Origin: Actinomycetota bacterium
GTDB lineage: Bacteria; Actinomycetota; Thermoleophilia; Gaiellales; Gaiellaceae
Length of the DNA stretch: 64,000 bases
Assembly: GCA_046727655.1 (NCBI GenBank)
Contig: JBKPDB010000043.1
Span: 111-64,110 of the forward strand
Direction: 5' to 3'
In this document: positions 15,433 to 55,203 of the stretch, piece after piece
How the letters are laid out: each line of letters opens with the position of its first letter
How positions within the stretch are numbered: position 1 is the first letter of the stretch
The notes under the pieces: generated by a model
Told to the model about the DNA's origin: nothing
Database searches by the model: none
Seen by the model: only the letters and a program-made list of their open reading frames with translations
Translations under genes and position numbers: made by a program

Positions 15433-17953
<2,521 letters not shown>

Positions 17954-30712: not shown

Positions 30713-32737
30713 GTGTCGCACGACACCGACAAGCTGATCCGTCAGCTGTCTCTCGTCGCCTACCTGATGGCGGAGCGGCGCGCCGTCACAGCTCGGGACG
30801 TCAAGTCGAACGTCGAGGGCTACTCGGAGATGTCGGACGAGGCATTCGCACGCCGCTTCTACTCGGACCGCGCGGAGCTGGTCGCACTCGGGGTCCCCCT
30901 CCAGTCTCAGCGCGACGAGTTCACGGGCGAGGAGCTGTACACGCTTCGCTCCGAGAACTACTTCCTGGAGAAGCTCGAGCTCGACGACGACGAGCTGGCG
31001 GCGCTGCAGACGGCCCTCTACCTGCTCGAAGGGAAGTTCGCGTACGCCGAGCCGCTCCGGCTCGCGCTCCAGAACCTCGCCCTCGGCCGCCCCGGCTTCG
31101 ACGAGCCCGCCACCGACACGGCGGTACGCGTAGAGGTCCTCGATCCCGACTACTCGCCGGAGATGCCCGGACGGCTCGGCAAGCTCGAGGGCGCGATCTC
31201 GAAGCAGCGCACGATCAAGTTCCCGTACTACTCGATCTCGCGCAACCGCCAGGGGGAGCGCACGGTCAACCCCTATGGGCTCCTCTCCGACAACGGGAGC
31301 TGGTACCTGATCGGACAGGACCTCGACCGCAAGGACATCCGCACGTTCCGCGTCTCCCGCATCCGCGGCGACATCCGCTTTGCGACACGCCGCGAGCGCG
31401 ATTTCCGGATCCCGGCCGACTTCGACATCGACGGCTACCGCGGACGGCCACCGTGGCAGATCGGAGACATCGTCGGCGAGGCCCGAGTCGAGCTCGCCGG
31501 CGACACGGCCTGGTGGGTCGATCGCGCCTACGGCAACGCCGGCCGTCTCGACGGCGACGTCTTCGTCACGGACTACTCGTCGGCCGCCCAGCTCGCCGCG
31601 TGGATCCTGCGCCAGGACGGACGGGCCATTCCGCTCGAGCCCGACGAGCTGCGCCGTGAAGTCGCCCAGGCACTGCGCACCGTTCGTGACCTGCACCGTG
31701 GGCCGGCCCCGACCCTGGCAGGCGAAGCGCCTGCCGTGCAGACCGATGGCGCGGGCGAGCGTCCCGCGGGCCCCGTCGTTCCCGAACGCTTCGCAGTCCT
31801 CCAGGCGCTGCTCGCCTACCTGCTCGCCGCCTGCGGCGAAGAGAACAGCGCGGTCATCCAGGCCTCCGAGCTCGTCGAGCGCTTCCACATTCCCAAGGAA
31901 GAGCTCGAGGAGCACCTCCAGCTCCTGAACCTCGTCAACTTCGGCGGCGGCTGCTACACGGTCTACGCGTCGCTCGACGGCGACACCGTCCACGTGGACA
32001 AGGAGCTCTACGGAGACACGTTTCGCCTCGCTCCGCGGCTCACCCCGCTCGAAGCGCGCGCGATTCGCCTCGCGCTGGAGTTCGTCGGGCCCATGATCGC
32101 CGCGGACGCGCACACGCCGCTCGACCGCGTGCGGAAGAAGCTCGAAGAGACGTTCGGGCAGTTCGAGCTGTCGCAGACACCGTCGCCGCCAGCCGGCGCA
32201 GGCGACGCGGAGGCGGACCTCGTCGCGACGCTCACCGAAGGCATCCGGGAGCGGCGCCTCGTGGAGATCGAGTACCAGAAGGAAGGCGAGCAGACCTGGT
32301 CGAAGCGCGTCGTCGAGCCCTACTCGCTCGAACGCGAGCTCCCGAACTGGCGAGTGCACACATGGGACCGGAGCAGAGACGCCGAGCGCAGCTTCCGACT
32401 CGACCGGATGCGGAGCGCGGCCCTGACGGCGGATCGCTTCGAGCCGCGACCGGGCTTCGAGCCGCGCGGCCTCCGGGATGCACGGACGGCCAAGGTCCTC
32501 TATCTCAAGGGAGTGGCCGCGCGGTGGGCGATCGAACGCGGAGCGACCCCGCTCAAGGACGGAACCGCAGTCGCGGAGATGCCGGTCGGAAGCCCGGAAT
32601 GGCTGACCAGCGAGATCCTCTCCCAGCGGGGCAGCGCGGTCCTGCTCGAGCCGGCCGAGATGCGTGAGACAGTGGCGGACCGTGCGCGCGAGCTCGCCGC
32701 GGAGCTCGGCGTCTCCCGCCTCCGCGCTCGCGCCTGA
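30713..32737 (+). CDS. pafBC: Fused PafB-PafC-type WYL-domain transcriptional regulator (HTH-WYL-WCX twice)
   Basis: 674 aa, GTG start. The first half starts KLIRQLSLVAYLMAERRAVTARDV (wHTH) and includes ...RTVNPYGLLSDNGSWYLIGQD (WYL). The second half starts RFAVLQALLAYLLA... and includes ...RVVEPYSLERELPNWRVHTWD (second WYL). Confidence 0.8.
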   Translation: MSHDTDKLIRQLSLVAYLMAERRAVTARDVKSNVEGYSEMSDEAFARRFYSDRAELVALGVPLQSQRDEFTGEELYTLRSENYFLEKLELDDDELAALQTALYLLEGKFAYAEPLRLALQNLALGRPGFDEPATDTAVRVEVLDPDYSPEMPGRLGKLEGAISKQRTIKFPYYSISRNRQGERTVNPYGLLSDNGSWYLIGQDLDRKDIRTFRVSRIRGDIRFATRRERDFRIPADFDIDGYRGRPPWQIGDIVGEARVELAGDTAWWVDRAYGNAGRLDGDVFVTDYSSAAQLAAWILRQDGRAIPLEPDELRREVAQALRTVRDLHRGPAPTLAGEAPAVQTDGAGERPAGPVVPERFAVLQALLAYLLAACGEENSAVIQASELVERFHIPKEELEEHLQLLNLVNFGGGCYTVYASLDGDTVHVDKELYGDTFRLAPRLTPLEARAIRLALEFVGPMIAADAHTPLDRVRKKLEETFGQFELSQTPSPPAGAGDAEADLVATLTEGIRERRLVEIEYQKEGEQTWSKRVVEPYSLERELPNWRVHTWDRSRDAERSFRLDRMRSAALTADRFEPRPGFEPRGLRDARTAKVLYLKGVAARWAIERGATPLKDGTAVAEMPVGSPEWLTSEILSQRGSAVLLEPAEMRETVADRARELAAELGVSRLRARA

Positions 32738-35132: not shown

Positions 35133-35432
35133 CTAGCCGATACCGAGAATGAACTTTGCGTCGTCCGACATCCGCTCAGGGGTCCACGGTGGATCCCACG
35201 TGAGCTCGACATCCACGTCCTCGACACCCGGGATCTCGCGCGCGACGCGGTTGATGTCATCCTGGATCATCGGCCCCGCGGGACAGCCCATGGACGTGAG
35301 GCTGTGCGTCACCTTGACGCGGGGTCCTTCAACCTCGACGTCGTAGAGCAGGCCGAGCTCGACGATGTCCATCCCGAGCTCCGGGTCCTCGACCTGGCGG
35401 AGCGCTTCGAAAACGTCGTCCTTCGTCGGCAT
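35133..35432 (-). CDS. Metal-sulfur cluster assembly factor (DUF59 / SufT-like)
   Basis: 99 aa: V.EALRQVEDPELGMDIVELGLLYDV...V.V..SLTSMGCPAGP.I..D: classic DUF59 pattern with the conserved Cys. Confidence 0.8.
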   Translation of the reverse strand: MPTKDDVFEALRQVEDPELGMDIVELGLLYDVEVEGPRVKVTHSLTSMGCPAGPMIQDDINRVAREIPGVEDVDVELTWDPPWTPERMSDDAKFILGIG

Positions 35433-35459: not shown

Positions 35460-36311
35460 TCAGTCGTTGGCCGCGGCGGCACCGGCCGCGGACAGCCGGA
35501 ACTTCGAATCGACCACGACCTTTCGGCGTGCAGGCTTCGTCGTGAGAGCAACAACTCGCCACCGGTAGCGTCCTGCTGCGAACCGGAAGCGGTTCGGGAG
35601 CACGTATCGCGGCTTGGCCGTCCGCGCTGCGATCACTCGCTTGCCGTTTCGCCGCAGCGTGAACACGTACCGGCGTGCGCGGGACTGCGGCTCCCAGCTC
35701 CACGTTCGCGCGGGAACGAAACCCGTCACGGCGGGTCGCCCTGGACTGCGCGGCCGTGTCGGCTTTTTCGCCGCCTTTTTCGCCGGCTTCTTCGCAGGCG
35801 CCGTCTTCGGCGTCGTGCTCGCCTTTGGCTGCGCTTCCTGTTTGGACTGCGGGCGACTCGTTGATCGACCGCTCTCCTGCGGCTTTTTCGCGACTGTCGT
35901 GACGGGCGTCTTCGACGGGACGGTTGCACTGTGACGGCGCACGGGCGTGCCCTTGCGTTGCGCAGTGCTCTCACTCCCGTTGTCGCGCAAGCCGGCGAGG
36001 CCGATGGCTACGGCGGAGCCGACGACGAGCAGCAACACGCCGACGAGCAACGTCCTCCGAACCCAACGTCGCCGGCGTGGTGCCGGGCGCGGCGGACTGT
36101 CGGACGGCCGCGGCGGCGGGCCGACTCGGCCGTTGGAGACCCGCCGATCCCGTTGGGTGGCCGGGGCCTCCGGCAGCTGTTCTCGCGCGCGTTTTGCCTC
36201 GTCCGGAGGCGCCACGAGCACGAGCTCCGGGCTGACGGGGTCCGGCACAGAAGACGTGCCCCAGCTCGCCTTCCCCGCAGTGGAACGATCGCCGCGCAGA
36301 TCGCTCGGCAT
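35460..36311 (-). CDS. Hypothetical membrane-anchored Pro/Lys-rich protein with C-terminal beta-rich domain
   Basis: 283 aa. TM (TLLVGVLLLLVVGSAVAIGLAGL), a low-complexity K/P/A/T linker, and a C-terminal ~90 aa domain (RYVFTLRRNGKRVIAARTAKPRYVLP...GRYRWRVVAL). Confidence 0.4.
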   Translation of the reverse strand: MPSDLRGDRSTAGKASWGTSSVPDPVSPELVLVAPPDEAKRAREQLPEAPATQRDRRVSNGRVGPPPRPSDSPPRPAPRRRRWVRRTLLVGVLLLVVGSAVAIGLAGLRDNGSESTAQRKGTPVRRHSATVPSKTPVTTVAKKPQESGRSTSRPQSKQEAQPKASTTPKTAPAKKPAKKAAKKPTRPRSPGRPAVTGFVPARTWSWEPQSRARRYVFTLRRNGKRVIAARTAKPRYVLPNRFRFAAGRYRWRVVALTTKPARRKVVVDSKFRLSAAGAAAAND

Positions 36312-36339: not shown

Positions 36340-37356
36340 CTAATAGCCGAGCAGGCGCACCTCTTCACGCCGGTCGCGAGCGAAGAAGTGGATGCCGTCC
36401 GTGAAGCGGACCCAATTGCAGCGCGTGCACATGACGAGGGAATGCGTGCGCGCCGAATCCGCGAGGAAGCGAACGCCGCGAAGCAGGTCGCCGTTCGACA
36501 CGCCCGTCGCAGCAACGATGACTTCCCCCGGCGCGAGCTCTTCGGTCGTGAAGACACGCGTCGCGTCGTCTATGCCCACCTCGCGCGCCTGCTCGATCTC
36601 GAGTCGCGACGTCGGCCAGAGCTGCGCCTGAACCTCGCCGCCGAGACAGCGGAGCGCAGCGGCGGACATGATGGCCTGGCGCGTGCCGCCGATGCCGACG
36701 GCGAGGTGGTCGTTCGTCCCGCGAATCGCGGCCGAGATCGACGCCGTGACCGTGCCGTCCTGGATCAGCTTGATGCGCGCACCCGAGGCGCGGATGTCCT
36801 CGATCAGATCGTGGTGACGCGGCCGGTCGAGCACGATAGTGGTGATGTCGTTCGTCCGGCGGCCGAATGCGTCCGCGATCGCCTGGACGTTCTCCCCCAT
36901 CGGCTTCAACAGGTCGATCGAGCCGCGCGCGAGCGGGCCGACGGCCATCTTCCGCATGTACATGTCCGGCAGGTTCAACAACGAGCCCGGCTCCCCGACC
37001 GCGATCATCGACATCGCGCCGTTGCCGCCGCGTGCGACGACGCCGCGGCCCTCGAGCGGGTCGAGCGCGAGGTCGACCGACTCGCCGCCGGCGCCGACCT
37101 CGTCGCCGACGCGCAGAGGCGACTCCTCTTCGGCCGCCCCGATCACGATCCGTCCCTGAATCGGGAAGTCCTTCAGCGCGGTCCTCATCGCCTGCGCCGC
37201 GTCGAGCTCCGCCGCCTCCTGGTCGGCGCGGCCGAGCCAGCGCGCGGCCCGCAGCGCCGCGCCGTCGGTCACACGCACGTACTGCTCGCAGAGACAGAGG
37301 CTCGGCCGACCGGTGTCGTCTCGTGCTGCCGCCGTCTCCTCGGCCGTCTCCGCCAC
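36340..37356 (-). CDS. glpX: Class II fructose-1,6-bisphosphatase (GlpX)
   Basis: GTG 37356 shares one nt with the stop of the upstream gene (TAGTG). DLALDPLEG......G..GAMS.IA........L...PD.YM.K.AVGP...G.IDL...NV..IA.A.G....D.T...LDRPRH..LI..IR..GARI.LI.DG: GlpX signature. Confidence 0.9.
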   Translation of the reverse strand: MAETAEETAAARDDTGRPSLCLCEQYVRVTDGAALRAARWLGRADQEAAELDAAQAMRTALKDFPIQGRIVIGAAEEESPLRVGDEVGAGGESVDLALDPLEGRGVVARGGNGAMSMIAVGEPGSLLNLPDMYMRKMAVGPLARGSIDLLKPMGENVQAIADAFGRRTNDITTIVLDRPRHHDLIEDIRASGARIKLIQDGTVTASISAAIRGTNDHLAVGIGGTRQAIMSAAALRCLGGEVQAQLWPTSRLEIEQAREVGIDDATRVFTTEELAPGEVIVAATGVSNGDLLRGVRFLADSARTHSLVMCTRCNWVRFTDGIHFFARDRREEVRLLGY

Positions 37357-38258
37357 TAGACTCGTTGTACCTGCTCGGCGTGTGACAGAACCAGCTCGAG
37401 CACCGCGTCGATCGTTTCCCGCATGTCGGGGCGGTCGATCACGGGAACCCCGTGTCGCCGTGCGCGCCGGACGATGAGGTCCTGGATCCGGCGTATGTCG
37501 TCGAGCCGGTCGATGTACTTGGCGTGCGGACGCAATCCCTCGTAGCCGGCCTCGCGGATAAGGAAGTGGGTGCTGTGGTCCTCCTCGTCGTCGATCGCGA
37601 GCACGCATTGCACGACCAACGCGCCCTCGATCGGCGGCAGCATCCCGGGCACGAGATGGACGCCCTCGAGCACCATCGACCAGCCTTCCTCCAGTGCGCG
37701 CTCGATCGATGCGCGGACGCCGACGAGCACGTTCCGCGTCTGCTCGAGGAAGCCGGCAATGACGGGATCCTCGGCGTGTTCCGGCTCGCGCAGCCCGGAC
37801 GACGCCTCGAAGCTCGAGTAGTGGATGGACGGCATGAACTCCTGTGAGAAGAATGCCCGCATCGTCTGGCGGACGAAGTCGGTCGAGGTCACGCGCGTGA
37901 TCCCCAGGCGATAGGCGGCTTCGGTTGCAACCGTCGACTTGCCGGTGCCGGTGGCGCCGCCGACCAGGACGATGAGCGGCAGGTCCAGCTCGTGCAGCTC
38001 GCGAAGGCTCCGCAGGCGCCGCACGGCCTCCGATCCCTCGGCCTCCCCCATCACGTCCACTGCGAGCTCCTCGACTCGCACCAGATCCGTGCCTTCCTCG
38101 CCGCGCTCGGAGAGGTCGGCCTCGATGCGCTTCGCCAGCTCGTACGCGCGGCCGAGCGGCACTCCGACCGCCACGAGCGCCCGCGCCATGAGGCCCTTCG
38201 AGTAGGGCTGGGCGGACGTCCCGAGCGGCAGCGGCTCGGAGTGACGGGGATGCGTCAT
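37356..38258 (-). CDS. 2-phosphoglycerate kinase (COG2074 type)
   Basis: 300 aa. N-terminal PYSKGLMARALVAVGVPLGRAYELAKRIEADL matches the 2PGK N-domain as I remember it. P-loop LVGGATGTGKSTVA. Its ATG overlaps the upstream stop (ATGA, 38255-38258). Confidence 0.75.
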   Translation of the reverse strand: MTHPRHSEPLPLGTSAQPYSKGLMARALVAVGVPLGRAYELAKRIEADLSERGEEGTDLVRVEELAVDVMGEAEGSEAVRRLRSLRELHELDLPLIVLVGGATGTGKSTVATEAAYRLGITRVTSTDFVRQTMRAFFSQEFMPSIHYSSFEASSGLREPEHAEDPVIAGFLEQTRNVLVGVRASIERALEEGWSMVLEGVHLVPGMLPPIEGALVVQCVLAIDDEEDHSTHFLIREAGYEGLRPHAKYIDRLDDIRRIQDLIVRRARRHGVPVIDRPDMRETIDAVLELVLSHAEQVQRV

Positions 38259-39451
38259 GCGCGCGCTCCTGCGGGGACGAGGCTCAGGATGGCATCGTCG
38301 AGGTCTGGCTCACCCTCGAGCGGTACCACGTCGTTCGCGGCGAAAACGACCTCGACTCCGCGCTCCTGAGCAGCCTCGGCGACGACGTCGATCGCCGCCG
38401 CCTTGAGCTCGACGAGGTAGACCTCGGCGTCGGAGCGCGCGAGATCCTCACGGAGCTTCGCGCGGTCGGCAAGGTTGCGGGAGACGGTCGTTACTTCCGC
38501 GTCGAGGTGCTCCGTCGGCGCCGGGCCCGTCGTGAACACGGCGACGCGTCGGCCGGCGACCGAAGTCATCGGACGCAGTCGCAGGTCGGCCTGCACGACC
38601 GGGATCTCCTTCAAGCGGCGGACCCGATCGCGATCGATGCGGCCGATGGAGACGAGGAGATCGGACACGAGCACGCGATACGCGTTCAGGTACGCCGTCG
38701 GGTCCTGCCCGCGGCCGGTGACGAGGATCCGCGCGTCGGTCTGCACCGGCGGGATCGCGGCCCCACTCCCATCGAAGACGACGACGTCGGGCTCCCGGTC
38801 GGCGGCGAGGGCGGCGCCCTCGAGCACGTTCGAGGATGTGACGGTGCCTGCAAGCCCACCTCCTGCACGGCGGCAGCCGATCGTCACGACGCCCGTCACC
38901 GCAGCCGTCTCCAGGTGGTCAGATGCAGCATGTTCTCCGGCGCGCGACAGCTCGACGAGCGACTCGACCGTCGGCTGCGCGTCCGCTGTGACGGGGTGTG
39001 CCGGCCCACCCCGGCCCATCGCGACGACGACGACGCTGCCGGTGCGAGAAAGCAGGCGCGCGACATGTCCCGTCACGGCGGTCTTGCCGACGCGTTTCCC
39101 CGTCCCGATCACTGCAATCGAGGGCAGCGGGAAGGCCGCGAACGCCGGTGCCTGGAAGTGAAAGTCCGCGCCTTCGTAGCGGAGACCGGCCGCCAGCACC
39201 CGGCTCGCCAGCAGTAACCGGTCCCGGGGCGCGAGCACGGGCTCGTCGGAGAGATCGACGACCACCTGGGCCTCGGCGAAGCCGTCCTCGAGGCCGGGCA
39301 GTAGCGGGACGCCGTAGTCCGGATCGTCACGGAGCTTCTCGGTGCCGCCGGCAAGCCATGCACCGACCACCTCGTACGGCAGCCCCGCGATCGCGTCGCG
39401 GACGACCGGCGGATAGTGCTCTCCGTCGATAATGACGAGCGCGGGAGTCAC
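38255..39451 (-). CDS. Cyclic 2,3-diphosphoglycerate synthetase (cDPGS)-like P-loop enzyme
   Basis: GTG 39451 overlaps the upstream stop (GTGA, 39448-39451). VTPALVIIDGEHYPPVVRDAI at the N-terminus, central P-loop VIGTGKRVGKTAV, about 398 aa. Adjacency to 2PGK supports the call. Family assignment is from memory and needs an HMM check. Confidence 0.7.
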   Translation of the reverse strand: MTPALVIIDGEHYPPVVRDAIAGLPYEVVGAWLAGGTEKLRDDPDYGVPLLPGLEDGFAEAQVVVDLSDEPVLAPRDRLLLASRVLAAGLRYEGADFHFQAPAFAAFPLPSIAVIGTGKRVGKTAVTGHVARLLSRTGSVVVVAMGRGGPAHPVTADAQPTVESLVELSRAGEHAASDHLETAAVTGVVTIGCRRAGGGLAGTVTSSNVLEGAALAADREPDVVVFDGSGAAIPPVQTDARILVTGRGQDPTAYLNAYRVLVSDLLVSIGRIDRDRVRRLKEIPVVQADLRLRPMTSVAGRRVAVFTTGPAPTEHLDAEVTTVSRNLADRAKLREDLARSDAEVYLVELKAAAIDVVAEAAQERGVEVVFAANDVVPLEGEPDLDDAILSLVPAGARA

Positions 39452-40251
39452 CGCCGGGACGTCACCTCCCCCTCGATCCGCGCCGTGTACTTCTCGAACT
39501 CGAGCGTGTCCACCGCGAACTGGATGATCCTCTCCTGGTCGTGGAACGGGTACTTGCGCCAGACGTCCACGTGCATGCCCGAGAACTCGATGACGTTGTA
39601 ACAGGGCCGCGTGTTGCCGCGCAGCCGCAGCGACGACACGGTCCCCGCGTTGACGATGAACAGGTTTTCCAGGCGCCACGCATACGGCACGTGCTTGTGC
39701 CCGGTCAGGACGAGGTTGACGCCGGCGCGCTGCAGGCATTCGATCGCGTCGCCGGCGTCGTAGATGATGTTCCGCTCACGCCCGGTGCCGGGGACCGGGA
39801 GCAGGTGGTGATGGCAGACGAAGATCCTGAGGTCTGCCGGCGTGGCGAAGCTCTCCTCGATCCATCCGTAGCGGCCGCGTCCGATCTGCCCGTGATCGAG
39901 GTCGGGCTCCGTCGAGTCGACGGCGACGACCGTCACGCCGTCGACCCGCATGACGGAGTTTCGGTCCCCGAAGAGCTGCTCGAAGTGGATGTAGCCGACG
40001 TTGCGCGAGTCGTGGTTGCCCGGTATGACGACGACGGATTCGCATTCGATCCGGTCGAGGTACTGCTTCGCGAGCGCGTATTCCTCCTTGAAGCCGAACG
40101 TCGTCAGGTCACCGGAGCAGATGACGATGTCCGGTTGAAGGTCGTTGACCTCCGTGATCGCACGCTCGAGGAGATTTGGCAAGAAGAACTGCGTCCCGCA
40201 ATGCAGATCGGAGATCTGGACGATGGTGCAGCGGCCGTCGCGCGTCGCCAT
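39448..40251 (-). CDS. Calcineurin-like metallophosphoesterase
   Basis: 267 aa with all MPE motifs: ISDLHCG, SGDLTTFG, IPGNHD, CHHHL, TGHKH. Confidence 0.85.
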   Translation of the reverse strand: MATRDGRCTIVQISDLHCGTQFFLPNLLERAITEVNDLQPDIVICSGDLTTFGFKEEYALAKQYLDRIECESVVVIPGNHDSRNVGYIHFEQLFGDRNSVMRVDGVTVVAVDSTEPDLDHGQIGRGRYGWIEESFATPADLRIFVCHHHLLPVPGTGRERNIIYDAGDAIECLQRAGVNLVLTGHKHVPYAWRLENLFIVNAGTVSSLRLRGNTRPCYNVIEFSGMHVDVWRKYPFHDQERIIQFAVDTLEFEKYTARIEGEVTSRR

Positions 40252-40306
40252 GCGCGAAGTCTAGGCGGCACAGAGACATCCGGACCGATTGCTACCCTGA
40301 TTCGAC

Positions 40307-40675
40307 GTGACGCTGGAAACCCCAAATTTCCAGGCATATCGTGGCAAGGAACCGCCCCGGTTCGCGAACCGAGCCGAGCTCGAGTGCGCAAAGGTCCTGG
40401 ACTACTACGGCGTTCCGTGGGAGTACGAGCCGACGACGTTCGTCCTCGAGGCCGATGAGGAGGGTCGCACCGTCGAGGCCTTCAAGCCTGACTTCTACTT
40501 GCCGGAGCAGGACCTGTACGTCGAGGTCACCGTCATGAAGCAGTCGCTCGTCACGCGCAAGAACCGCAAGCTGCGCAAGCTCCGCGAGCGCTACCCGGAC
40601 GTCCGCGTCAAGCTGTTCTACAAGCGCGACATCGAGCGCCTGGCGGAGCGATACCGGCTCGAGTTCGCGTCGTAG
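40307..40675 (+). CDS. Hypothetical small protein, possible PD-(D/E)xK nuclease-like fold
   Basis: 122 aa. AFKPDFYLPEQDLYVEVTVMK resembles the PDF(Y/L)L...(I/V)E core of restriction-endonuclease-like domains. Basic C-terminus. Weak, motif-only evidence. Confidence 0.4.
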   Translation: MTLETPNFQAYRGKEPPRFANRAELECAKVLDYYGVPWEYEPTTFVLEADEEGRTVEAFKPDFYLPEQDLYVEVTVMKQSLVTRKNRKLRKLRERYPDVRVKLFYKRDIERLAERYRLEFAS

Positions 40676-47641: not shown

Positions 47642-47912
47642 CCTGAGATTCTAGTCCGACCCGCCTCGCGGCTCTTGGTTCCCAGCGGACGTCAGAGGCA
47701 TAGATCGAAGCGAGCGCCGCCGCCAGCTTGGGCTCGCCGCGCGCCGCATCGAGCAGACCTTCGACAACCGCCGTGGCAACACCTGCCGCGACATCCTCCA
47801 CCGCACGGCGACGATCGCCCGGCAGCGAGCGGAGCGGCCCTCGCGCCCGGTAGAGCTCGTGGTCGAGCACGACGCGAGCGTGCCGATGGAAGGCATGGGA
47901 TACCTGGCTCAC
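47631..47912 (-). CDS. Hypothetical small ORF translationally coupled to the oxidase paralog (GTGA overlap)
   Basis: GTG (complement of 47910-47912) overlaps the stop of 47909..51106. The 93 aa are helical and Ala/Arg/Val rich (…AVEDVAAGVATAVVEGLLDAARGEPKLAAALASIY…). It fills the otherwise empty 268-nt gap before ccmE. No homology recognised. Confidence 0.3.
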   Translation of the reverse strand: MSQVSHAFHRHARVVLDHELYRARGPLRSLPGDRRRAVEDVAAGVATAVVEGLLDAARGEPKLAAALASIYASDVRWEPRAARRVGLESQGGS

Positions 47913-50900
47913 CGCGCTCCCATTGCAGGGCGGACGGCAGACTCCGACGCCGCCCGAGCGGGAGCGATCGTCGGAAGGACGAAGCCGCAGAACATGAGCG
48001 CAATGCCGATCAGCTCGCCGACGTAGAGGAGCGACGTGTCGCCGGCGCGCGAGAGACCGGTCGATGCCGCGACCACCAGTGCACCGCACGCGATCCAGAC
48101 GTTCGCCCGCACCCGCTGTCGTCGCGCGATCGAGAGCAGCGACCCTCCGACGAGAAACAGCGTGCCGACGCAGTTGAGCGTGATCGCCCAGAGGAACGCG
48201 TGACCTCCGAGAGCGGAGTTCGCCGGCGGCTCGCCGCTTTTCGCGGCCGCGAGCACGCCGCTGTCGACAGGAGCGAGCGAGACGGTGACGATCGCCGCAG
48301 CCGTGGCGGCGAGCAACGCCCCCAAGAGCACGTCGCGCGCACGGCGGGGCAGCAACAGCCATGCGGATCCGCAACCCAGATACGCGACGGTCAGAACGCC
48401 GCCTGCGATGTAGTAGATGCGAAAGAGACTCGGCGTCCACCCGGCGCGCTGTGCCAAGGCTTCGCTGCCCGCGGCAAGAGCGAAGAGAACAAAGCCCGCG
48501 GCCCAGAGCGCCTTCGGGCCCGCAGGCCTATGCAGGAATGAACGTACGAGCAGCAGCGCAAACGCAAGGGCAAGCAGCGCCGCACCGACTGGAAGGAACG
48601 AAGAGGCGATCTGAGGTGAACTTCGGTCTCCACCAGAGCTGATGGCGGTGACAGGGGCGTCGCGCGCCACGACGACGAAGTAGGCGAAGTCGCGGCCGCC
48701 GAACATCCCCTGATGAGTCCCCACGAAGAGGTAACGCCCCGACTGCAGCCGATCCCGTGGCGCCAGAACGAGGGCCCTCGGCGAGCTCGAACGAACGGCC
48801 AGTTGGACGGGGCGTCCGCGCGCCAGGTTGAAGAGCTGGTACGCCTCGGGACTATCGACGACAGCGGCCCGGGCGATGAGCGCGTGGACGTCGGCGGCGT
48901 GCAGCCTCAGCGCGTCGCGCGGGTAGGGATTCTGTGGATCGGGCCAGGAGAAGAGCTTCACCGTACCGCCCCGGGTGACCAGGAACTGGCCCGTCACCTC
49001 GCGTGTGAAGCCGGTCTGGTACGTGTACCTGAGCGACCCAGAGACGATGCCGGACACGGGCGGAACGAAGGGGAGCGAGACGAGCACGAGCAGGATCGAC
49101 CCGATGGCCACGCCGACGCGCGTGCGGTAGCGATTACGTGACGAGGGTGGTCGCCTGCGGGCGATTCGGCGACGGCGGCGCCGGTGCGCGCGATAGAGCG
49201 CACCGGCGGAGAGAAGCGCACTGACCGCGAGCCACACGAACTCGAACTTCCAGCCAACCCCGCGCAGCGGGCCCGTGCCGTATGGGCTGAACGCCGATGG
49301 GATCACGGCCCAGGCGAGCACGGGGCCGATGAGGAGCAGGATCGCCGCGGTGAACGGAAACCCAGCGAAGAGCCAGCCGATGCCGGGGAAGCCGAGAAAC
49401 GCCATCGGCAGCTCGTAGCCGGCGAGCGCCGCCGGGCTCCGCATCCGTACACGCTTTGGAACCGGTCCTGCGTAGACCCTTGGTGCGGCCACGAGGGCGC
49501 GCCGGCCTGCCGCGCGCTGGCGCGCAGTCAGCTTCCAGGTGGCCACGGCGTAGGCGCCGAAGCCACCGAAGACGGCGAGAGCTGCCGGGATCAATAGGAG
49601 GGCGGGCCACGGTTGAAGAGCGGCGACGACGGAGGGGAACGTCTCGCCACCCGCGACGCGGCGAGCCTCGAGCGCCGAAATTACCATGCCCGCCGCGTAA
49701 TAGACGGCCATGCCGGCGGCGACGCCGACGAGCGTCATACGGGCATAGCCTGGACGGGTCCGAACGTCGAGGCCGCCGACCAACACCAGCGCGGCGCCCA
49801 CGAGGACCACCATCAGCCCGCCGAGCATGTTGAGCTGAGCGTGCAGGTTGACGATCACGCCGCCCGCGTCACCGCCCCGGTCGAGCAGCTCGTGCACCGC
49901 GGGGACGGCCTGCACCGGTCCCTGCAGCGTCCCGACCGCGAGCGCAGCGCATCCGGCGAGGACGAACAGGCGCGGCAACCCGTTGGCTCGCCAGAAGCAG
50001 CGGACGAGTACAGCAAGCAGCAGCCAGACAGCCGCGAACATCGCCACCCCACCGGCAATGATCAGGTAGGGATGGAGCGGCGTCGCCTCCTCGGCCTGCT
50101 CCGGGGTGAGCCCGCGCCGAGCAACCAGACGCCCTTCGTGAAAGCCGAGATAGAGCGCAGCGGCGTAGAAGGCGAGCGAGCCGCAGAGCAGCAGGTAGAA
50201 GCATGCGTTCGCGACCTTGCGCGCCGGCGGGGTCCCGCCGAGCAGCGGGACGAGGTAGAAGACGCAGCCGGCGACGAGCATCGTCAGCCCTGTCACGAGG
50301 TTGACGTGAGCATGGCTGATCGGGTCGATCCACTCCCCGGCGTGGCCCGCGCGGTAGAGCCAATCGGCCTGCGCAGGCGCCACCTGGATCACGCCCTGCA
50401 CCGTGCCGACCGTCAGTCCAGCGGCGCCGGTGGCGAGGAACTTCCAAAGATGCCCGCTCGGCTTCGGTACCTGCACCAGGCGCGCGTGGAAGACGGTCAG
50501 GAACACGTTGGCGGCGAAGCACCAGTAACCGAGCCCCATGACGCCGGCGCCGATTCCGACCGGCACCTTGTACCACTTGCCCATGCTCGCCTTCGCGGTC
50601 TCGTAGTCCCAGCCATGCGCGACGAGGCGCCCGATCACGATCCCGTTGCCGACGAAGGCGACGTAGAAGACGAGCAGCCCGACGGCTGTGAACCAGAACG
50701 CACACTGGGCCAGCGCGTCGCTGGCGAGCGGCCTGCCGACGATGCGCGGCAGGACGTACCAGCACAGGCCGGTGGCGATCAGGGTGCCGCCGCCGACGAT
50801 CATCACGTGCGTGTTGGCCAGGTCACGGACGAGATGTCCGGCGTAGCCGGCGCGCGCGAGCCACTCGGCCGTCCAGGGCATGTTCTTCACGACCATGTGG

Positions 50901-51106
50901 AGGCTGCCCAGGACGAGGAAGCCCCCGCCGGCGACGAAGTACTTCGCCAGCTTCCGGTCATGCGCGCCGAGTTGCTCCTCGCTGTGAGGCACCGTTCGAA
51001 CGGGCGGAGCCTTCCCCGGCAGGAGGCGCCAGAGGGAGGCAATGACGATGGTGAAGAAGGCGACGTAGGTCAGGAACTCGAGCGACGAGAGGTGCTTCAG
51101 GTACAC
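47909..51106 (-). CDS. Divergent heme-copper oxidase subunit I (cbb3/CcoN-like) paralog fused to a ~575-aa C-terminal multi-TM extension
   Basis: 1065 aa, GTG start. Residues ~50-480 align by eye helix-by-helix with the CcoN encoded at 53692..55203 (e.g. THVMIVGGG...YVLPRIVGRP vs GHVNGVILAW...YMLPRLCGTR; SHAHVNL vs YAHNLFG). Two canonical His ligands are replaced (see finding). No in-frame stop splits it. Confidence 0.6.
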   Translation of the reverse strand: MYLKHLSSLEFLTYVAFFTIVIASLWRLLPGKAPPVRTVPHSEEQLGAHDRKLAKYFVAGGGFLVLGSLHMVVKNMPWTAEWLARAGYAGHLVRDLANTHVMIVGGGTLIATGLCWYVLPRIVGRPLASDALAQCAFWFTAVGLLVFYVAFVGNGIVIGRLVAHGWDYETAKASMGKWYKVPVGIGAGVMGLGYWCFAANVFLTVFHARLVQVPKPSGHLWKFLATGAAGLTVGTVQGVIQVAPAQADWLYRAGHAGEWIDPISHAHVNLVTGLTMLVAGCVFYLVPLLGGTPPARKVANACFYLLLCGSLAFYAAALYLGFHEGRLVARRGLTPEQAEEATPLHPYLIIAGGVAMFAAVWLLLAVLVRCFWRANGLPRLFVLAGCAALAVGTLQGPVQAVPAVHELLDRGGDAGGVIVNLHAQLNMLGGLMVVLVGAALVLVGGLDVRTRPGYARMTLVGVAAGMAVYYAAGMVISALEARRVAGGETFPSVVAALQPWPALLLIPAALAVFGGFGAYAVATWKLTARQRAAGRRALVAAPRVYAGPVPKRVRMRSPAALAGYELPMAFLGFPGIGWLFAGFPFTAAILLLIGPVLAWAVIPSAFSPYGTGPLRGVGWKFEFVWLAVSALLSAGALYRAHRRRRRRIARRRPPSSRNRYRTRVGVAIGSILLVLVSLPFVPPVSGIVSGSLRYTYQTGFTREVTGQFLVTRGGTVKLFSWPDPQNPYPRDALRLHAADVHALIARAAVVDSPEAYQLFNLARGRPVQLAVRSSSPRALVLAPRDRLQSGRYLFVGTHQGMFGGRDFAYFVVVARDAPVTAISSGGDRSSPQIASSFLPVGAALLALAFALLLVRSFLHRPAGPKALWAAGFVLFALAAGSEALAQRAGWTPSLFRIYYIAGGVLTVAYLGCGSAWLLLPRRARDVLLGALLAATAAAIVTVSLAPVDSGVLAAAKSGEPPANSALGGHAFLWAITLNCVGTLFLVGGSLLSIARRQRVRANVWIACGALVVAASTGLSRAGDTSLLYVGELIGIALMFCGFVLPTIAPARAASESAVRPAMGAR

Positions 51107-51978: not shown

Positions 51979-52270
51979 CGTCCCACTCCTCCTCGTCGTA
52001 CGCCCAGTCGGGCGTGTAGTAGTCCTCCTCCTCGATCTCGAGTGGCACCCGCGAGGCCTCTGCCAGGTTGTGGAAGTGGCCGAGCTTCCAGGTGATGACG
52101 AACGCGATCAGCGCGACGCCCGCGAGGATGAAGAACATGTCGAGCATCCAATCCGCCATGACCCACTTCGACTGGTCGTTCTCCGGCGCATCGTGCCCAA
52201 GCGCCGCCGCGGGAACGGCGAGCGAGGCTGCCAGCGCGAAGACGGCCGTGATGAGAAGACGCCTCATCAA
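51959..52270 (-). CDS. Small exported/TM protein with acidic tail, hypothetical
   Basis: 103 aa. Signal-like N-terminus (MMRRLLITAVFALAASLAVPAAALG), TM (MFFILAGVALIAFVITW) and an acidic tail EEEDYYTPDWAYDEEEWDDGD. ATGA overlap with the ccoO/P stop. Confidence 0.4.
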   Translation of the reverse strand: MMRRLLITAVFALAASLAVPAAALGHDAPENDQSKWVMADWMLDMFFILAGVALIAFVITWKLGHFHNLAEASRVPLEIEEEDYYTPDWAYDEEEWDDGDANR

Positions 52271-53688
52271 TGGCCCGGCAGTGTCGGAGGAATGTCCTTC
52301 TGTACCTCAGGCGGTAGCTTGTCGCCGCGAGCCCTTGCGTCGGTCCAGGCGCGGTCGAGGAGATCTTCGTAGATCGTCTTGATGCCGGCGGCGGCGTCCT
52401 TGAGGGTGAGCGGCGTCTCGAGGCCGTTGACGACAATCACGTCGCTCGGCGCAAGACCCGGGAAGGTGCGCCGCGCTGCCTGGAAGAAGGGATCCGCGAG
52501 CTCGTGCTTGGCGAACGACGCGTTCTTCGCGATCTGCTGGCGCGTCTTGACCCACGCCAGCAACTCCTTCGACGGTGACCAGACGATGTAGTCCTTCGGG
52601 GTCGGGATGCGGTGTTTGGCCAGCGTCTTGTTCGGGATCGTCTTCAGGAACAGGACGACACGCCAGATGTCGTCCACCGAGAGCCGCTCGCCGAAGTTCT
52701 CCATCCCAGTGCCCGGCCACCCGCGCAGGATGCGGTAGTAGAAGTCACCCGGACCGGTGTCGCCGCCGCAACATTGATCGTCGGCGTCGTCGAACGGAAG
52801 CGGAGTCGGCGACAGGAAAGATTCCGCTGGACCCTTCCCGTTGCCCTGCGGCCCGTGGCAGCCGACGCAGCGCTCGAGAAAGATCTCCTTGCCGCGGAGC
52901 AGGTTCGCCGTCGTCACCGGCAGGGGGTTGGCGGCGAGCCAGTAGCTGCGGTCGATCTGGGCGAGGTTGGGCGCCTCTTCGAGCTGGTTCGGCGGCGGCT
53001 TCACCTCCTTCGGCTTGAGGGGTGGCCTGTGCGCACCCTGGAAGCCCGTGTACGGCGCCGGGAAGCCCTGGACCGTGTTGACGACGTGCTTCGCATAGAG
53101 CTGGCTGGCATACCGCAGCAGGCCTGACTTGCCGCTGCGCTCCTGCGTGAACAGGATGAGGTTGTCGACCTGCTTGTCCGAGAAGAGCGACTTCATCGGC
53201 GGCATCAGCGACAGCGGGTCGATGAACCGTGGGTTGTAGAAGTGCGCCCGGTGCCAGTCGTCGGGGTGCCAGCCTGCATCCTGCGACAGGTCGGGGCCCG
53301 TCCGCTCCGTCCCGAACAGGTTCGGCGACTGGTCGCTGCCGAAGAAGTCACCCGGCTGGGAGACTTTCGGATAGAGGAAGTACAGCGCGTAGCGCACGTC
53401 CTGCGGCCGTGAGTAGCCGGAGTGGCACACGTAGCAGCCGTTGGAGGCGAACAGGTCGCGGCCCTTGACGGCGCTCTTGGAGAGGGGCGCCCAGTCGGCC
53501 GACGCGGGGGGATCGAAGGTGTGGATCGGGAGCCAGACGACCGCGAAGACGACGGCGAAGAATGCCAACAGCCCACCGAGGCCGGCAACGAGCGGCGTCA
53601 TCAGCATCCGCTCGCGCGGGTGCGGAGCCCAGCCGCGCGGAGCTCGCGGCTCGGCCTCGTTCGACTCGAATCGGTCGCCCTCGGCCAT
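52267..53688 (-). CDS. Fused cbb3-type oxidase cytochrome c subunits (CcoO-like N-terminal half plus mono-heme CcoP-like C-terminal half)
   Basis: 473 aa. TM anchor, a first CxxCH (GCYVCHSGY) within GRDLF..NGC..CHS...R.....GPDL...G......H..H..NP......S.MP (CcoO pattern), and a second CxxCH (CVGCHGPQGNGKG) followed later by Met (PGTGMENF). Confidence 0.8.
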   Translation of the reverse strand: MAEGDRFESNEAEPRAPRGWAPHPRERMLMTPLVAGLGGLLAFFAVVFAVVWLPIHTFDPPASADWAPLSKSAVKGRDLFASNGCYVCHSGYSRPQDVRYALYFLYPKVSQPGDFFGSDQSPNLFGTERTGPDLSQDAGWHPDDWHRAHFYNPRFIDPLSLMPPMKSLFSDKQVDNLILFTQERSGKSGLLRYASQLYAKHVVNTVQGFPAPYTGFQGAHRPPLKPKEVKPPPNQLEEAPNLAQIDRSYWLAANPLPVTTANLLRGKEIFLERCVGCHGPQGNGKGPAESFLSPTPLPFDDADDQCCGGDTGPGDFYYRILRGWPGTGMENFGERLSVDDIWRVVLFLKTIPNKTLAKHRIPTPKDYIVWSPSKELLAWVKTRQQIAKNASFAKHELADPFFQAARRTFPGLAPSDVIVVNGLETPLTLKDAAAGIKTIYEDLLDRAWTDARARGDKLPPEVQKDIPPTLPGH

Positions 53689-53691
53689 CGG

Positions 53692-55203
53692 CTAGCTCAC
53701 AGGCAGAGGCGGCGAGGCGGCCTCGGCGAACCGCAGCGTCTCCAGCCGTCTCCGTTCCTGCGTGTTCGACCAGATCGTCATGCCGACGTTGATCATCTGC
53801 ACGATCCCCGAAGCGATGATCATCACGCCGAAGATTCCGCGCGCGATGAAGTACGCATGGAGCTGCGGCAGCACGTTCACCTCGGGGATCCCCTGAGCCC
53901 AGCTGAAGCCCTGCTGGAAGCCGGCGAGGGTGAGCACGCTGAAGAAGCCCGTGAAGCCGATCGTGACTAGCCAGTACTGCCATTCGGTCAGACTGCGACT
54001 CCATAACGGACGTGCGTAGACCTGCGCGACGATGTAGTCGATCACGCCCATGCCGAGGATCGTGAAGGCGCCGAGTAACGCGAGGTGCGCATGAGCGACG
54101 ACGAAGTTCGTGAAGTGGGTGAGCCGGTTGAACGGCTGCAGCGCCTGGAAAGCTCCCTGAATGTTGACGAGCCAGTAGAAGAAGAACGCCGTCAGCGTGA
54201 AGCGAAGGGGTAAGTTCGTGAAGAACTTGTCCCAGTTGCCCTTCATCGTGCCGAGGATGTTGATCGTGAAGGCGAAGACGGGGACGAGCAGCATCCAGGA
54301 AGACGTCGTGGCGATGGTCTTGAGCCAGGCCGGCGTCGGCGACTGCAGGATGTGATGGTCGCCGACCCCGGTGTAGAAGAAAGCGATGCCCCAGAAACTG
54401 ACGAGCGAGAGGGTGTAGCCGTAGAGCGGCGTGTTCGTGACGCGCGGAACCATGTAGAGCGTCAGCGCGACCAGCATCGGCGTCAACCAGAGACCGAACA
54501 GGTTGTGCGCGTACCACCAGTTCAGCATCGCGTCCGCGAGACTGTTCGAGAGGGTGCCCGAGGGCGCGCCCCAGATATGGCCGGGCCTCCAAAGGACGTT
54601 GCCGATCGCGTAGTCGACCGCGAGCCACAACGGACTCGCGAGGAACCACCAGACCGTGACGTAAATCGGCCTGATCGTCCGAATCTGGACGGTGGCGATG
54701 ATGTTGACGATGTTGAGGCACCAGATCACGAGCAAAGCGATGTCGAGCGGCCAGATCAGCTCGCCGTACTCACGACCCTGGCTGTGACCTGTAAGCAACC
54801 CGATCACGCCCAGCAGGTACATGGCGTTCCACGCCCACGCACACCACACGCCCAGCCGCTCGCTCCACATCCCGCGTGTGCCGCACAGCCGCGGGAGCAT
54901 GTAGAAGAGCGCGCCGAAGTACATCATCGTCAGCCAGGCGAGGATCACGCCGTTGACATGGCCCTGACGGACGCGTGAGAAGGCGAGCCACGAGATGCCG
55001 CCGAAGGCATCCGGGCTGATGAACTCGGTCGAGAGCACGCCGCCGAAGAGGTCGACGACGGTCAGCCAGATGATCGACGAGAGCAGCCAGTGACGAGCCG
55101 CACGATCCCGGTACGGGAGCGCGCGTGGAGCCTTGAGCGGAATCGCAGCAGGAGCAGGCGGCTCGAGGACCGCCGCGCTTGGCTCCCGAGTTCGCTCGGC
55201 CAT
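53692..55203 (-). CDS. ccoN: cbb3-type cytochrome c oxidase subunit I (CcoN)
   Basis: 503 aa, 12 TM, with all six canonical His: RQGHVNG, NWWYAHNLFG, GVGDHHIL (Tyr six residues before the HH pair), VVAHAHLALLG. Confidence 0.88.
   Translation of the reverse strand: MAERTREPSAAVLEPPAPAAIPLKAPRALPYRDRAARHWLLSSIIWLTVVDLFGGVLSTEFISPDAFGGISWLAFSRVRQGHVNGVILAWLTMMYFGALFYMLPRLCGTRGMWSERLGVWCAWAWNAMYLLGVIGLLTGHSQGREYGELIWPLDIALLVIWCLNIVNIIATVQIRTIRPIYVTVWWFLASPLWLAVDYAIGNVLWRPGHIWGAPSGTLSNSLADAMLNWWYAHNLFGLWLTPMLVALTLYMVPRVTNTPLYGYTLSLVSFWGIAFFYTGVGDHHILQSPTPAWLKTIATTSSWMLLVPVFAFTINILGTMKGNWDKFFTNLPLRFTLTAFFFYWLVNIQGAFQALQPFNRLTHFTNFVVAHAHLALLGAFTILGMGVIDYIVAQVYARPLWSRSLTEWQYWLVTIGFTGFFSVLTLAGFQQGFSWAQGIPEVNVLPQLHAYFIARGIFGVMIIASGIVQMINVGMTIWSNTQERRRLETLRFAEAASPPLPVS

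Follow-up and report, generated by a model that had tools for sequence, protein, structure and literature searches.

A conserved metallophosphoesterase–cDPG synthetase–2-phosphoglycerate kinase gene triad in soil Gaiellales: a putative cyclic 2,3-diphosphoglycerate pathway in bacteria

Biosynthesis of cyclic 2,3-diphosphoglycerate (cDPG) proceeds via 2-phosphoglycerate kinase (2PGK) followed by cDPG synthetase (cDPGS) (PMC10690619), and reviews describe the compound as exclusive to hyperthermophilic methanogens. For Methanothermobacter, a storage role of cDPG as well as a cDPG hydrolase, the gene of which was not named, have been described (PMC1224877). According to the account given in PMC1224877 of the work of van Alebeek 1994 and Sastry 1992, the M. 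thermautotrophicus hydrolase is membrane-bound and converts cDPG to 2,3-diphosphoglycerate (2,3-DPG), fitting a mobilisable store of phosphate and carbon. The preliminary description of the locus studied here held that cDPG has not been demonstrated in bacteria, in agreement with a 2023 paper (PMC10690619). Bacterial homologues of cDPGS are already named in databases, but our literature search found no paper discussing them.

Here we describe a chromosomal operon that encodes full-length homologues of both enzymes of the archaeal pathway in a Gaiellales bacterium from ordinary soil rather than a hyperthermophilic methanogen. Relative to the archaeal system, the cDPGS homologue is shorter, with the E305 segment absent, the 2PGK homologue scores below the equivalog level, and a conserved metallophosphoesterase (MPE) gene precedes the pair while a class II fructose-1,6-bisphosphatase gene (glpX) follows it; the product is predicted to be cDPG. 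We consider the operon to be a bacterial version of the cDPG pathway, extended by the two genes for MPE and GlpX, with a probability of about 0.6.

Operon architecture and its conservation

In the 64-kb window, i.e., the whole stretch of DNA that was analysed, four minus-strand genes (40251..36340) are chained via stop/start overlaps. They encode MPE (39448..40251, 267 aa), the cDPGS homologue (38255..39451, 398 aa from a GTG start), the 2PGK family protein (37356..38258, 300 aa, ATG start) and GlpX (36340..37356, 338 aa from GTG). Read on the minus strand, GTGA at 39451-39448 combines the MPE stop TGA with the cDPGS start GTG, ATGA at 38258-38255 joins the cDPGS stop to the 2PGK start, and in TAGTG at 37358-37354 the 2PGK stop TAG and the GlpX start GTG have nt 37356 in common. 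These coordinates and overlaps had been given in the preliminary description and were all confirmed by minus-strand reads and ORFs, and each of the peptides listed there (LVIIDGEHYPP, GTGKRVGKT, PYSKGLMARAL, GGATGTGKST) was found in the ORF translations. The short starts of cDPGS and GlpX are backed by homology, with similarity opening 4 residues past the GTG and at residue 22-25, respectively; a 99%-identical public gene call for cDPGS is likewise 398 aa long. Such overlaps alone are unremarkable, since this high-GC genome has many overlaps of four bases (e.g., at 17021-17024 and 52267-52270 among the ORFs of the window). Their conservation across loci, though, exceeds chance: an overlap of -4 or -1 nt is available at the MPE>cDPGS and cDPGS>2PGK junctions in 69/84 loci each and at 2PGK>GlpX in 44/61, all of these counts being upper estimates because the script takes the start nearest to the stop.

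Synteny was analysed in the 80 best-matching species genomes, all Gaiellales or other Thermoleophilia and mostly soil MAGs. The order MPE-cDPGS-2PGK is found in every one of these relatives wherever the contig shows it, with MPE as the first gene, upstream of cDPGS, in 80/80 Gaiellales loci; MPE also lies upstream of cDPGS in four other Actinomycetota loci (L083, L086, L087, L089). Of 76 Gaiellales loci that are informative on this point, 61 have GlpX after 2PGK and 15 lack it. A survey of other Actinomycetota, as suggested in the preliminary description, revealed that the triad is kept there but GlpX is not, its place being taken by a transaldolase/FSA gene (TAL_FSA), rho, or nothing. As the triad persists while the fourth gene varies, MPE-cDPGS-2PGK is the conserved unit and glpX a lineage-specific addition. 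Thus, the four-gene operon proposed initially holds for the window and the 61 loci, with the triad at its core, and the special coupling to GlpX is confined to the clade level and does not define the unit. The cDPGS and 2PGK genes lie side by side, in most cases overlapping by 4 nt, in the Gaiellales loci, the four other Actinomycetota, Thermococcus, a Hodarchaeota archaeon and two unplaced loci (L090, L092). This adjacency across bacteria and archaea is as a two-step pathway predicts. In the two archaeal loci examined (Thermococcus and Hodarchaeota), the pair is adjacent and overlapping as in the window, with no MPE seen beside cDPGS. Lower-glycolysis partners found elsewhere are iPGM in Bipolaricaulota and apgM in L092 and L083.

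A -10-like hexamer, TAGACT (40258..40263, minus strand), ends 6 nt upstream of the MPE start codon. Among 19 relatives with a fixable MPE start, 18 have a TAnnCT-type hexamer 6-8 nt upstream of it; a sigma-70 consensus scan found no promoter. The TAGACT hexamer is the probable site of the operon promoter, whose transcript would be leaderless and start at or beside the MPE ATG; this reading draws on general knowledge of actinobacterial promoters. Downstream of the operon lies a gene for a 99-aa DUF59/Fe-S assembly (SufT-like) protein (35133..35432, minus strand; Pfam FeS_assembly_P, 2.9e-22), present in 71/80 relatives. In loci with coordinates that allow a comparison, it comes soon after GlpX, or soon after 2PGK if GlpX is missing (e.g., L001, L003, L032, L037); several loci have it another 1-2.5 kb downstream, and L061 and L075 have it on the opposite strand. 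Its relation to the operon is one of synteny only. On the other side, 55 nt from the MPE start, a divergent gene (40307..40675, plus strand) encodes a conserved 122-aa protein that matched no Pfam or NCBIfam family and resembled T7 endonuclease I only weakly (3cae, E 0.0037). About 75 of the 80 relatives have this protein at 69-94% identity, its gene usually being directly upstream and divergent.

The four gene products

The preliminary assignment of the 38255..39451 product to the cDPGS family was borne out by phmmer searches against the PDB, which gave E-values of 8e-68 to 9sxb and 8e-64 to 8oru/8ork, the M. fervidus cDPGS, over the full length (residues 5-393). Like the archaeal enzymes, the protein has a DGEHY domain at its N terminus, a Walker A motif (GTGKRxGKT), D208 as Mg ligand and an ELK motif, and is identical to them at E45, K46, K145, R146, K149, T150, D208, T353, E404 and K406. 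All 2,3-DPG, Mg and phosphate ligand residues are thus intact, and these ligands are invariant among 26 diverse family members, including the 2,3-DPG contacts of the crystal structure (E45, K46, K145, R146). The window enzyme is about 40-60 residues shorter than its archaeal counterparts; E305, an adenosine contact in M. fervidus, falls in a deletion. A 99%-identical cDPGS cluster is annotated with Pfam PF27272 (CpgS_N) and named cDPG synthetase by JGI.

For gene 3, the 2PGK assignment stands as the best family match, NCBIfam PRK04220 (4.6e-77, 259 bits, 283/306 model positions), at a score that remains below the NCBI equivalog cut-off of 343 bits. One paralogue in the family, mevalonate-3-phosphate 5-kinase, acts on another substrate; paralogue models score far lower on gene 3, at 140 and 79 bits, the latter for the mevalonate-3-phosphate kinase model. 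Gene 3 is alignable with the cDPGS-adjacent kinases of eight other bacterial and archaeal loci, with LPYSKGL, GGATGxGKST and EGVHLVPG as common motifs. PRK04220 scores form a continuum, from 401 bits for the Thermococcus kinase, which passes the cut-off, to 265-313 bits for bacteria.

Gene 4 is, by its sequence, an ordinary class II FBPase: it matches Pfam FBPase_glpX (1.6e-103), passes the TIGR00330 equivalog cut-off (270.3 versus 259.3 bits) and can be aligned along its entire length with FBPase II of M. tuberculosis (6ayu; 7.5e-69). It resembles the M. tuberculosis (6AYU) and E. coli GlpX enzymes except for its context, as it is, unlike these, translationally coupled to a 2PGK gene.

MPE matches Pfam Metallophos (1.3e-18) with a complete set of metal-ligand motifs (DLH, GD, GNHD, HHH, GHKH) and thereby has fold and motifs in common with Rv0805, CpdA/Icc and Enterobacter GpdQ. 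Its predicted fold is the generic one, with TM-scores of 0.53-0.67 to this class, and among solved proteins it comes closest to Rv0805 and GpdQ, at E-values of only about 1e-11 to 1e-13. The protein differs from these enzymes in its fixed place before cDPGS and in its invariant loop HHHLxPVPGTGRERN; the subfamily-specific Arg-rich loops GTGRERN and LRxRG do not occur in cyclic-nucleotide enzymes. Although treated as a bystander in the preliminary description, MPE is rather the most conserved member of the unit, with 50-58% identity across the Gaiellales and the four other Actinomycetota loci versus 41-47% for 2PGK and 35-41% for cDPGS, in addition to its presence in 80/80 loci. On these features, it represents a distinct, very well conserved subfamily without close characterised relative.

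Proposed pathway and competing explanations

In the pathway we propose, the 2PGK homologue would phosphorylate 2-phosphoglycerate with ATP to 2,3-DPG, as suggested by its family membership and its conserved adjacency to cDPGS. The cDPGS homologue would then spend a second ATP on joining the two phosphates of 2,3-DPG into the cyclic pyrophosphate cDPG, in line with full-length homology and the intact ligand-binding set. MPE, encoded first and coupled to cDPGS, is a candidate cDPG hydrolase or 2,3-DPG phosphatase; we infer from gene linkage and chemistry alone that it would most likely act on the product side, opening cDPG to 2,3-DPG, the reaction of the M. thermautotrophicus hydrolase, or converting 2,3-DPG to phosphoglycerate. 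This would make the pool available as a source of carbon, phosphate and energy. There is precedent for such chemistry: pyrophosphate bonds are cleaved by the metallophosphoesterases LpxH/LpxG and, in the case of the cyclic bond of cyclic ADP-ribose, by ADPRibase-Mn. GlpX, the last gene in the clade, may tie expression of the pool to gluconeogenic conditions, under which 2-PG and 3-PG are converted to hexose phosphate, and the stop/start overlaps would lead to coupled translation of all four proteins. Several points weigh against parts of this scheme. Without regulation, a synthetase and a hydrolase for cDPG that are expressed from a single coupled operon would set up a futile cycle. The MPE step has to be reconciled with the generic fold, with the lack of MPE beside cDPGS in the two loci from archaea known or presumed to make cDPG, and with the membrane association of the M. 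thermautotrophicus hydrolase, as gene 1 encodes no evident signal peptide or membrane segment. The GlpX link is weakened by the loss of the gene from a fifth of related loci.

It is conceivable, if unlikely, that 2,3-DPG or cDPG is made while MPE is an unrelated cyclic-nucleotide phosphodiesterase (CpdA/Icc) on a shared transcript. In its favour, JGI annotates orthologues of MPE as 3',5'-cAMP phosphodiesterase (CpdA or Icc), the closest solved proteins are Rv0805 and GpdQ, and the archaeal pairs are free of MPE; yet the CpdA equivalog model reaches just 34 bits (cut-off, 225 bits) and the SpdA model just 45 (cut-off, 400 bits). The subfamily's own Arg-rich loops likewise speak against a cyclic-nucleotide enzyme, as does the invariable position of MPE immediately before cDPGS in the Gaiellales and the four other Actinomycetota loci, in most of which the two genes overlap by 4 nt or 1 nt, while the genes flanking the triad change. 

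Quite improbable in our view is that 2,3-DPG itself is the key end product, as cofactor of a dPGM-type mutase, as regulator or as intermediate of an ATP-spending shunt, with cDPGS only buffering the pool. The preliminary description had allowed 2,3-DPG as an alternative pool, the M. fervidus cDPGS reaction is reported to be reversible (PMC1224877), and phosphoglycerate mutase genes adjoin cDPGS in other lineages. A shunt from 2-PG via 2,3-DPG to 3-PG, analogous to that of Rapoport and Luebering, would be completed by MPE acting as 2,3-DPG phosphatase. However, no dPGM gene was found within the 64-kb window, and cDPGS has been kept with its 2,3-DPG, Mg and phosphate ligand residues invariant in 26 diverse family members, arguing for selection on the cyclisation step itself. 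Finally, kinase and cDPGS-like ligase might have drifted to other substrates and yield a related but different product. The sub-threshold 2PGK score in a family with a mevalonate-3-phosphate 5-kinase paralogue and the deletion that removes E305 count against the cDPG reading as well as for such drift, for which mesophilic hosts, where a thermoprotectant is unexpected, could also be cited. We consider it very unlikely nonetheless, given that PRK04220 is by far the best model (259 versus 79 bits for mevalonate-3-phosphate kinase), that scores grade continuously from the passing Thermococcus enzyme to the bacterial ones, and that the four 2,3-DPG contacts are invariant.

Returning to the cDPG pathway as the preferred reading, a role as phosphate, energy or carbon reserve, or as osmotic, desiccation or oxidative protectant, is more likely than thermoprotection because the hosts come from ordinary soils.

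Operon layout and the synthetase and kinase genes

The preliminary description had placed four overlapping minus-strand open reading frames at this locus, and both the frames and their junctions were confirmed exactly on the minus-strand sequence. The series runs from a metallophosphoesterase gene (MPE, gene 1; 39448-40251, minus strand, 267 aa) through the genes for a cyclic 2,3-diphosphoglycerate (cDPG) synthetase (cDPGS, gene 2; 38255-39451, minus strand, 398 aa) and a kinase of the 2-phosphoglycerate kinase family (2PGK, gene 3; 37356-38258, minus strand) to glpX, encoding a class II FBPase (gene 4; 36340-37356, minus strand). At the gene 1/gene 2 junction, GGCGGTGACTCCC at 39451-39448, the GTG start lies inside the TGA stop; the gene 2/gene 3 junction reads GCGCATGACGCAT at 38258-38255, and at the gene 3/gene 4 junction, GAGTCTAGTGGCGG at 37358-37354, nt 37356 is common to TAG and GTG. 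The maximal open reading frames of genes 2 and 4 comprise 494 and 422 aa and extend far into the preceding gene; homology begins in both cases only just past the proposed overlapping start codons, and a 99%-identical public gene call likewise gives gene 2 a length of 398 aa. Shine-Dalgarno-like GGAGG/AGGAG motifs precede the start codons of genes 2 and 3 by 11-16 nt, and in most relatives' loci each of the three junctions offers a 4-nt or 1-nt stop/start overlap.

The earlier identification of gene 2 as a cDPG synthetase gene was borne out by whole-length alignment of its product with three solved cDPG synthetases (phmmer against the PDB, 8e-68 to 8e-64). The best of these is 9sxb (8e-68), and residues 5-393 align to chain residues 7-449 of the characterised M. 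fervidus enzyme (8oru/8ork, 8e-64). The Pfam and NCBIfam copies that we searched gave no match; they contain no model for the cDPGS family, and PF27272, for which a precomputed match exists on a cluster 99% identical to gene 2, is newer than the Pfam copy used, so that this null result is not evidence against the assignment. Using an alignment of the gene 2 product and 25 diverse homologues, we mapped the residues reported to bind 2,3-diphosphoglycerate (2,3-DPG), Mg2+ and the nucleotide phosphates (E45, K46, K145, R146, K149, T150, D208, E404 and K406), together with the adenosine/ribose contacts outside the P-loop (E305, P335 and T353) (De Rose 2023, PMC10690619). The gene 2 product is identical at every residue of the former set and at T353, and the ligands of 2,3-DPG, Mg2+ and phosphate are invariant in the 26 diverse family members except for D208 (24/26). 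The E305 position falls inside a short deletion in the gene 2 product and is occupied by E in only 19 of the 26 sequences, while the published P335 corresponds to no proline under the alignment numbering used here.

For gene 3, the proposed 2PGK identity held up in comparison with the paralogous kinases and fell short of the curated family threshold. Its product scores 259.4 bits against PRK04220 (NCBIfam NF003259; COG2074; 4.6e-77, 283/306 model positions), below the 2PGK equivalog cut-off of 343 bits; related models gave 260 bits (PRK12337), 140 bits (PRK12338) and 79 bits (PRK12339, the mevalonate-3-phosphate 5-kinase model), which places gene 3 closer to 2PGK than to the paralogues. On the 2PGK model the kinases adjacent to cDPGS form a continuum, descending from Thermococcus (401 bits, above the cut-off) and Hodarchaeota (331 bits) to other bacteria (265-313 bits). 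Kinases neighbouring cDPGS in eight other bacterial or archaeal loci align with gene 3 and carry the same motifs, namely the P-loop GGxTGxGKS, LPYSKGL and EGVHLVPG. A PDB search with the gene 3 product returned nothing meaningful and no 2PGK relative among solved structures.

The metallophosphoesterase and the conserved neighbourhood

The gene 1 product belongs to the calcineurin-like phosphoesterases (PF00149, 68.6 bits against a gathering threshold of 21.5), and the metal-ligand motifs D15-x-H17, G47-D48, G78-N79-H80-D81, H147-149 and G184-H185-x-H187 are invariant in an alignment of its orthologues. JGI names these orthologues CpdA (3',5'-cAMP phosphodiesterase) or Icc. This name is unsupported, as the protein reaches 34.4 bits on the CpdA/Icc equivalog model NF008359, where the cut-off is 225 bits, and we regard the label as a likely mis-annotation that is corrected here; the SpdA model NF050112 is failed as well (44.8 bits, cut-off 400). 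No solved structure is closer than Rv0805 and GpdQ (1e-11 to 1e-13). Foldseek matches of the AlphaFold model (pLDDT 77) were confined to generic folds (purple acid phosphatases, Rv0805, GpdQ, Vps29), and the predicted structure gives no help on the substrate. Two Arg-rich loops, GTGRERN and LRxRG, are likewise invariant in the orthologues and would suit a polyanionic substrate, which may be taken as weak evidence. Across the four non-Gaiellales Actinomycetota loci described below (L083, L086, L087 and L089), MPE shares 50-58% identity with the gene 1 product, and the corresponding values are lower for both cDPGS (35-41%) and 2PGK (41-47%).

The nearest database proteins belong to Gaiellaceae and Gaiellales MAGs. 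Among 185,579 species, each represented by a single genome, at least 470 loci encode a cDPGS relative, and the best 80 of these all belong to Gaiellales, Thermoleophilia or unclassified Actinomycetota MAGs, mostly from soil collections; the family amounts to about 250 clusters at 50% identity (E<1e-30). When the four window proteins were compared with the best 80 loci by tblastn, MPE was found upstream of cDPGS in 80/80, 2PGK adjoined cDPGS on its downstream side in 78/80, with the remaining two stopping at a contig edge, and GlpX followed 2PGK in 61 of the 76 informative loci. Beyond this set, the triad MPE-cDPGS-2PGK is followed by rho in a Solirubrobacterales MAG (L087) and on a low-GC contig (L089), and by a protein of the transaldolase/fructose-6-phosphate aldolase family (TAL_FSA) in an Actinomycetota MAG (L086) and on another low-GC contig (L083). 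On both low-GC contigs the triad is preceded by homoserine-dehydrogenase and threonine-synthase-like genes, and rho lies downstream; L089 additionally carries rpmE and prfA. Thermococcus (L084) and Hodarchaeota (L091) possess an overlapping cDPGS-2PGK pair only, Bipolaricaulota (L081) has cDPGS-iPGM, and two unplaced loci show the orders 2PGK-cDPGS-apgM-CBS (L092) and 2PGK-cDPGS (L090). By these contexts cDPGS plus 2PGK form the conserved functional core everywhere; MPE is an addition in Actinomycetota, and enzymes of lower glycolysis and gluconeogenesis are variable partners. A neighbour-joining tree of cDPGS from 15 loci was star-like and offers no dependable clue as to which way transfer between archaea and bacteria would have gone.

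Public metagenome proteins in which MPE is apparently fused to cDPGS or cDPGS to 2PGK (P0292, P0219, P0250, P0175) were considered as Rosetta-stone evidence and rejected, since long wrong-frame Arg/Ala/Pro stretches in their sequences identify them as frameshift artefacts. They probably arise from a single indel that merges the overlapping stops and starts, and they could mislead surveys of PF27272 domain architecture.

GlpX, expression signals and flanking genes

Gene 4 passes the TIGR00330 equivalog model (270.3 vs 259.3 bits), covers 302/307 positions of Pfam FBPase_glpX (1.6e-103) and matches the M. tuberculosis enzyme 6ayu (7.5e-69); by these similarities its product is a standard class II FBPase GlpX. 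Further downstream lies a gene for a 99-aa DUF59/FeS_assembly_P (SufT-like) protein (35133-35432, minus strand), which was found in 71/80 loci, usually shortly past GlpX or 2PGK, in several loci 1-2.5 kb further downstream and in two on the opposite strand. As a same-strand downstream neighbour of the operon it is more constant than GlpX. In the GlpX-less loci checked, the DUF59 gene follows within about 100 nt after 2PGK, so that GlpX looks to have been either inserted into an older gene block or lost from it. Between GlpX and DUF59 the window has a Pro/Ala/Lys-rich open reading frame of 283 aa without a family match (35460-36311, minus strand), possibly a membrane-anchored low-complexity protein; a recognisable counterpart is present in only 2 of 80 relatives (L005, L072), which makes it a recent or fast-evolving insertion. 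The TAL_FSA protein (215 aa) that takes GlpX's place after 2PGK in two low-GC Actinomycetota loci (L083, 8325-8972; L086, 3175-3822) provides another tie between the triad and hexose-phosphate metabolism, independent of the first.

Upstream of the operon, the hexamer TAGACT (40263-40258, minus strand) of the form TAnnCT ends 6 nt ahead of the MPE ATG, and such a hexamer is positioned 6-8 nt ahead of the MPE start in 18/19 relatives. The -10 element TANNNT of actinobacterial promoters precedes the start of transcription by about 7 nt, and the spacing of the hexamer, read against this position, suggests that the operon transcript is leaderless. A generic sigma-70 scan returned no promoter, and terminator-like matches were no commoner than in shuffled sequence. 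Rfam at gathering thresholds and a tRNA scan gave no RNA family or tRNA in the window, hence no known riboswitch or leader. On the other strand, 55 nt from the MPE start, begins the gene of a highly conserved 122-aa protein (40307-40675, plus strand). Neither Pfam nor NCBIfam assigns this protein to a family, its only match, to T7 endonuclease I, is weak (3cae, E 0.0037), and about 75 of the 80 Gaiellales loci encode a counterpart at 69-94% identity. The gene is almost always oriented divergently at 45-55 nt from the MPE start and has its own conserved -10-like element, TGnTACCCT.

Elsewhere the window is ordinary chromosome, encoding among others mraW/PBP, SecDF, queA, a cbb3-type oxidase and Nramp. 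One 674-aa protein (30713-32737, plus strand) combines two WYL domains with a PafC-type HTH and WCX domains; it looks like a fused PafB-PafC-type regulator and is unrelated to the four-gene operon. The cbb3/FixO-like haem-copper oxidase cluster (47909-51106 and 52267-55203, minus strand) includes an unusually long open reading frame of 1065 aa, whose COX1 match is weak and partial.

A possible cDPG pool in mesophilic Actinomycetota

Judged from its sequence, the operon combines an active-looking MPE with an intact cDPGS, a kinase of the 2PGK family and GlpX in a conserved, coupled gene order, and as a case built from homology and synteny only it is solid. The gene 3 product would convert 2-phosphoglycerate and ATP to 2,3-DPG, and the gene 2 product would convert 2,3-DPG and ATP to cDPG, ADP and Pi, both as in M. 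fervidus (PMC10690619). MPE may provide the mobilising step, either from cDPG to 2,3-DPG or from 2,3-DPG to PG and Pi, a role suggested by gene linkage and by the superfamily's chemistry; in Methanothermobacter this mobilisation of cDPG has been described only as an enzyme activity (PMC1224877), and the hydrolase there is reported to be inhibited by K+ and Pi. In the Gaiellales clade, co-translation of GlpX would connect the pool with flux through gluconeogenesis, a pathway to which the preliminary description had also linked it. The presence of both a synthetase and a hydrolase in one operon would imply post-translational control.

We advance only tentatively, with a rough probability of 30%, the reading that abundant mesophilic soil Actinomycetota, among them Gaiellales and further deep-branching lineages, make and turn over cDPG, with gene 1 as the missing cDPG hydrolase or 2,3-DPG phosphatase and the triad as a complete charge-and-discharge module that would store phosphate, energy and carbon or furnish a stress solute. 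A defence-system reading of the locus was considered as well and rejected, the PADLOC matches being weak and non-specific. The proposal of cDPG synthesis and turnover is directly testable, since members of the genus Gaiella are culturable and one Gaiella MAG has the operon.

According to a 2023 paper, cDPG is exclusive to hyperthermophilic methanogens (PMC10690619), and cDPGS homologues of ammonia-oxidising archaea have been taken as a marker of thermophily (PMC7554672). In the searchable literature we found no relevant work on cDPG or cDPGS in bacteria, whether for Gaiella, Actinobacteria or metagenomes. Bacterial homologues already bear the labels 'cyclic 2,3-diphosphoglycerate synthetase' (JGI) and '2,3-diphosphoglycerate synthetase' (NCBI) in databases, so that the annotation by itself is no novelty; what is new is that the genes extend through mesophilic soil Thermoleophilia, that MPE-cDPGS-2PGK is conserved as a triad and that the coupling to GlpX is clade-specific. 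Gaiellales rank among the commonest actinobacterial orders of soil, and cDPG is under commercial development as an extremolyte; mesophilic bacterial enzymes could, if the reading is true, be used for its production. The translationally coupled MPE would then offer a specific candidate for the enzyme of cDPG breakdown, to which no gene is assigned in the sources read, and the role of cDPG would be broader than thermoprotection, extending for example to phosphate and energy storage or to desiccation or oxidative-stress tolerance. Synthesis and turnover of cDPG in these soil bacteria would thus end the view of a compound confined to hyperthermophilic methanogens and would assign a gene to its degradative step.
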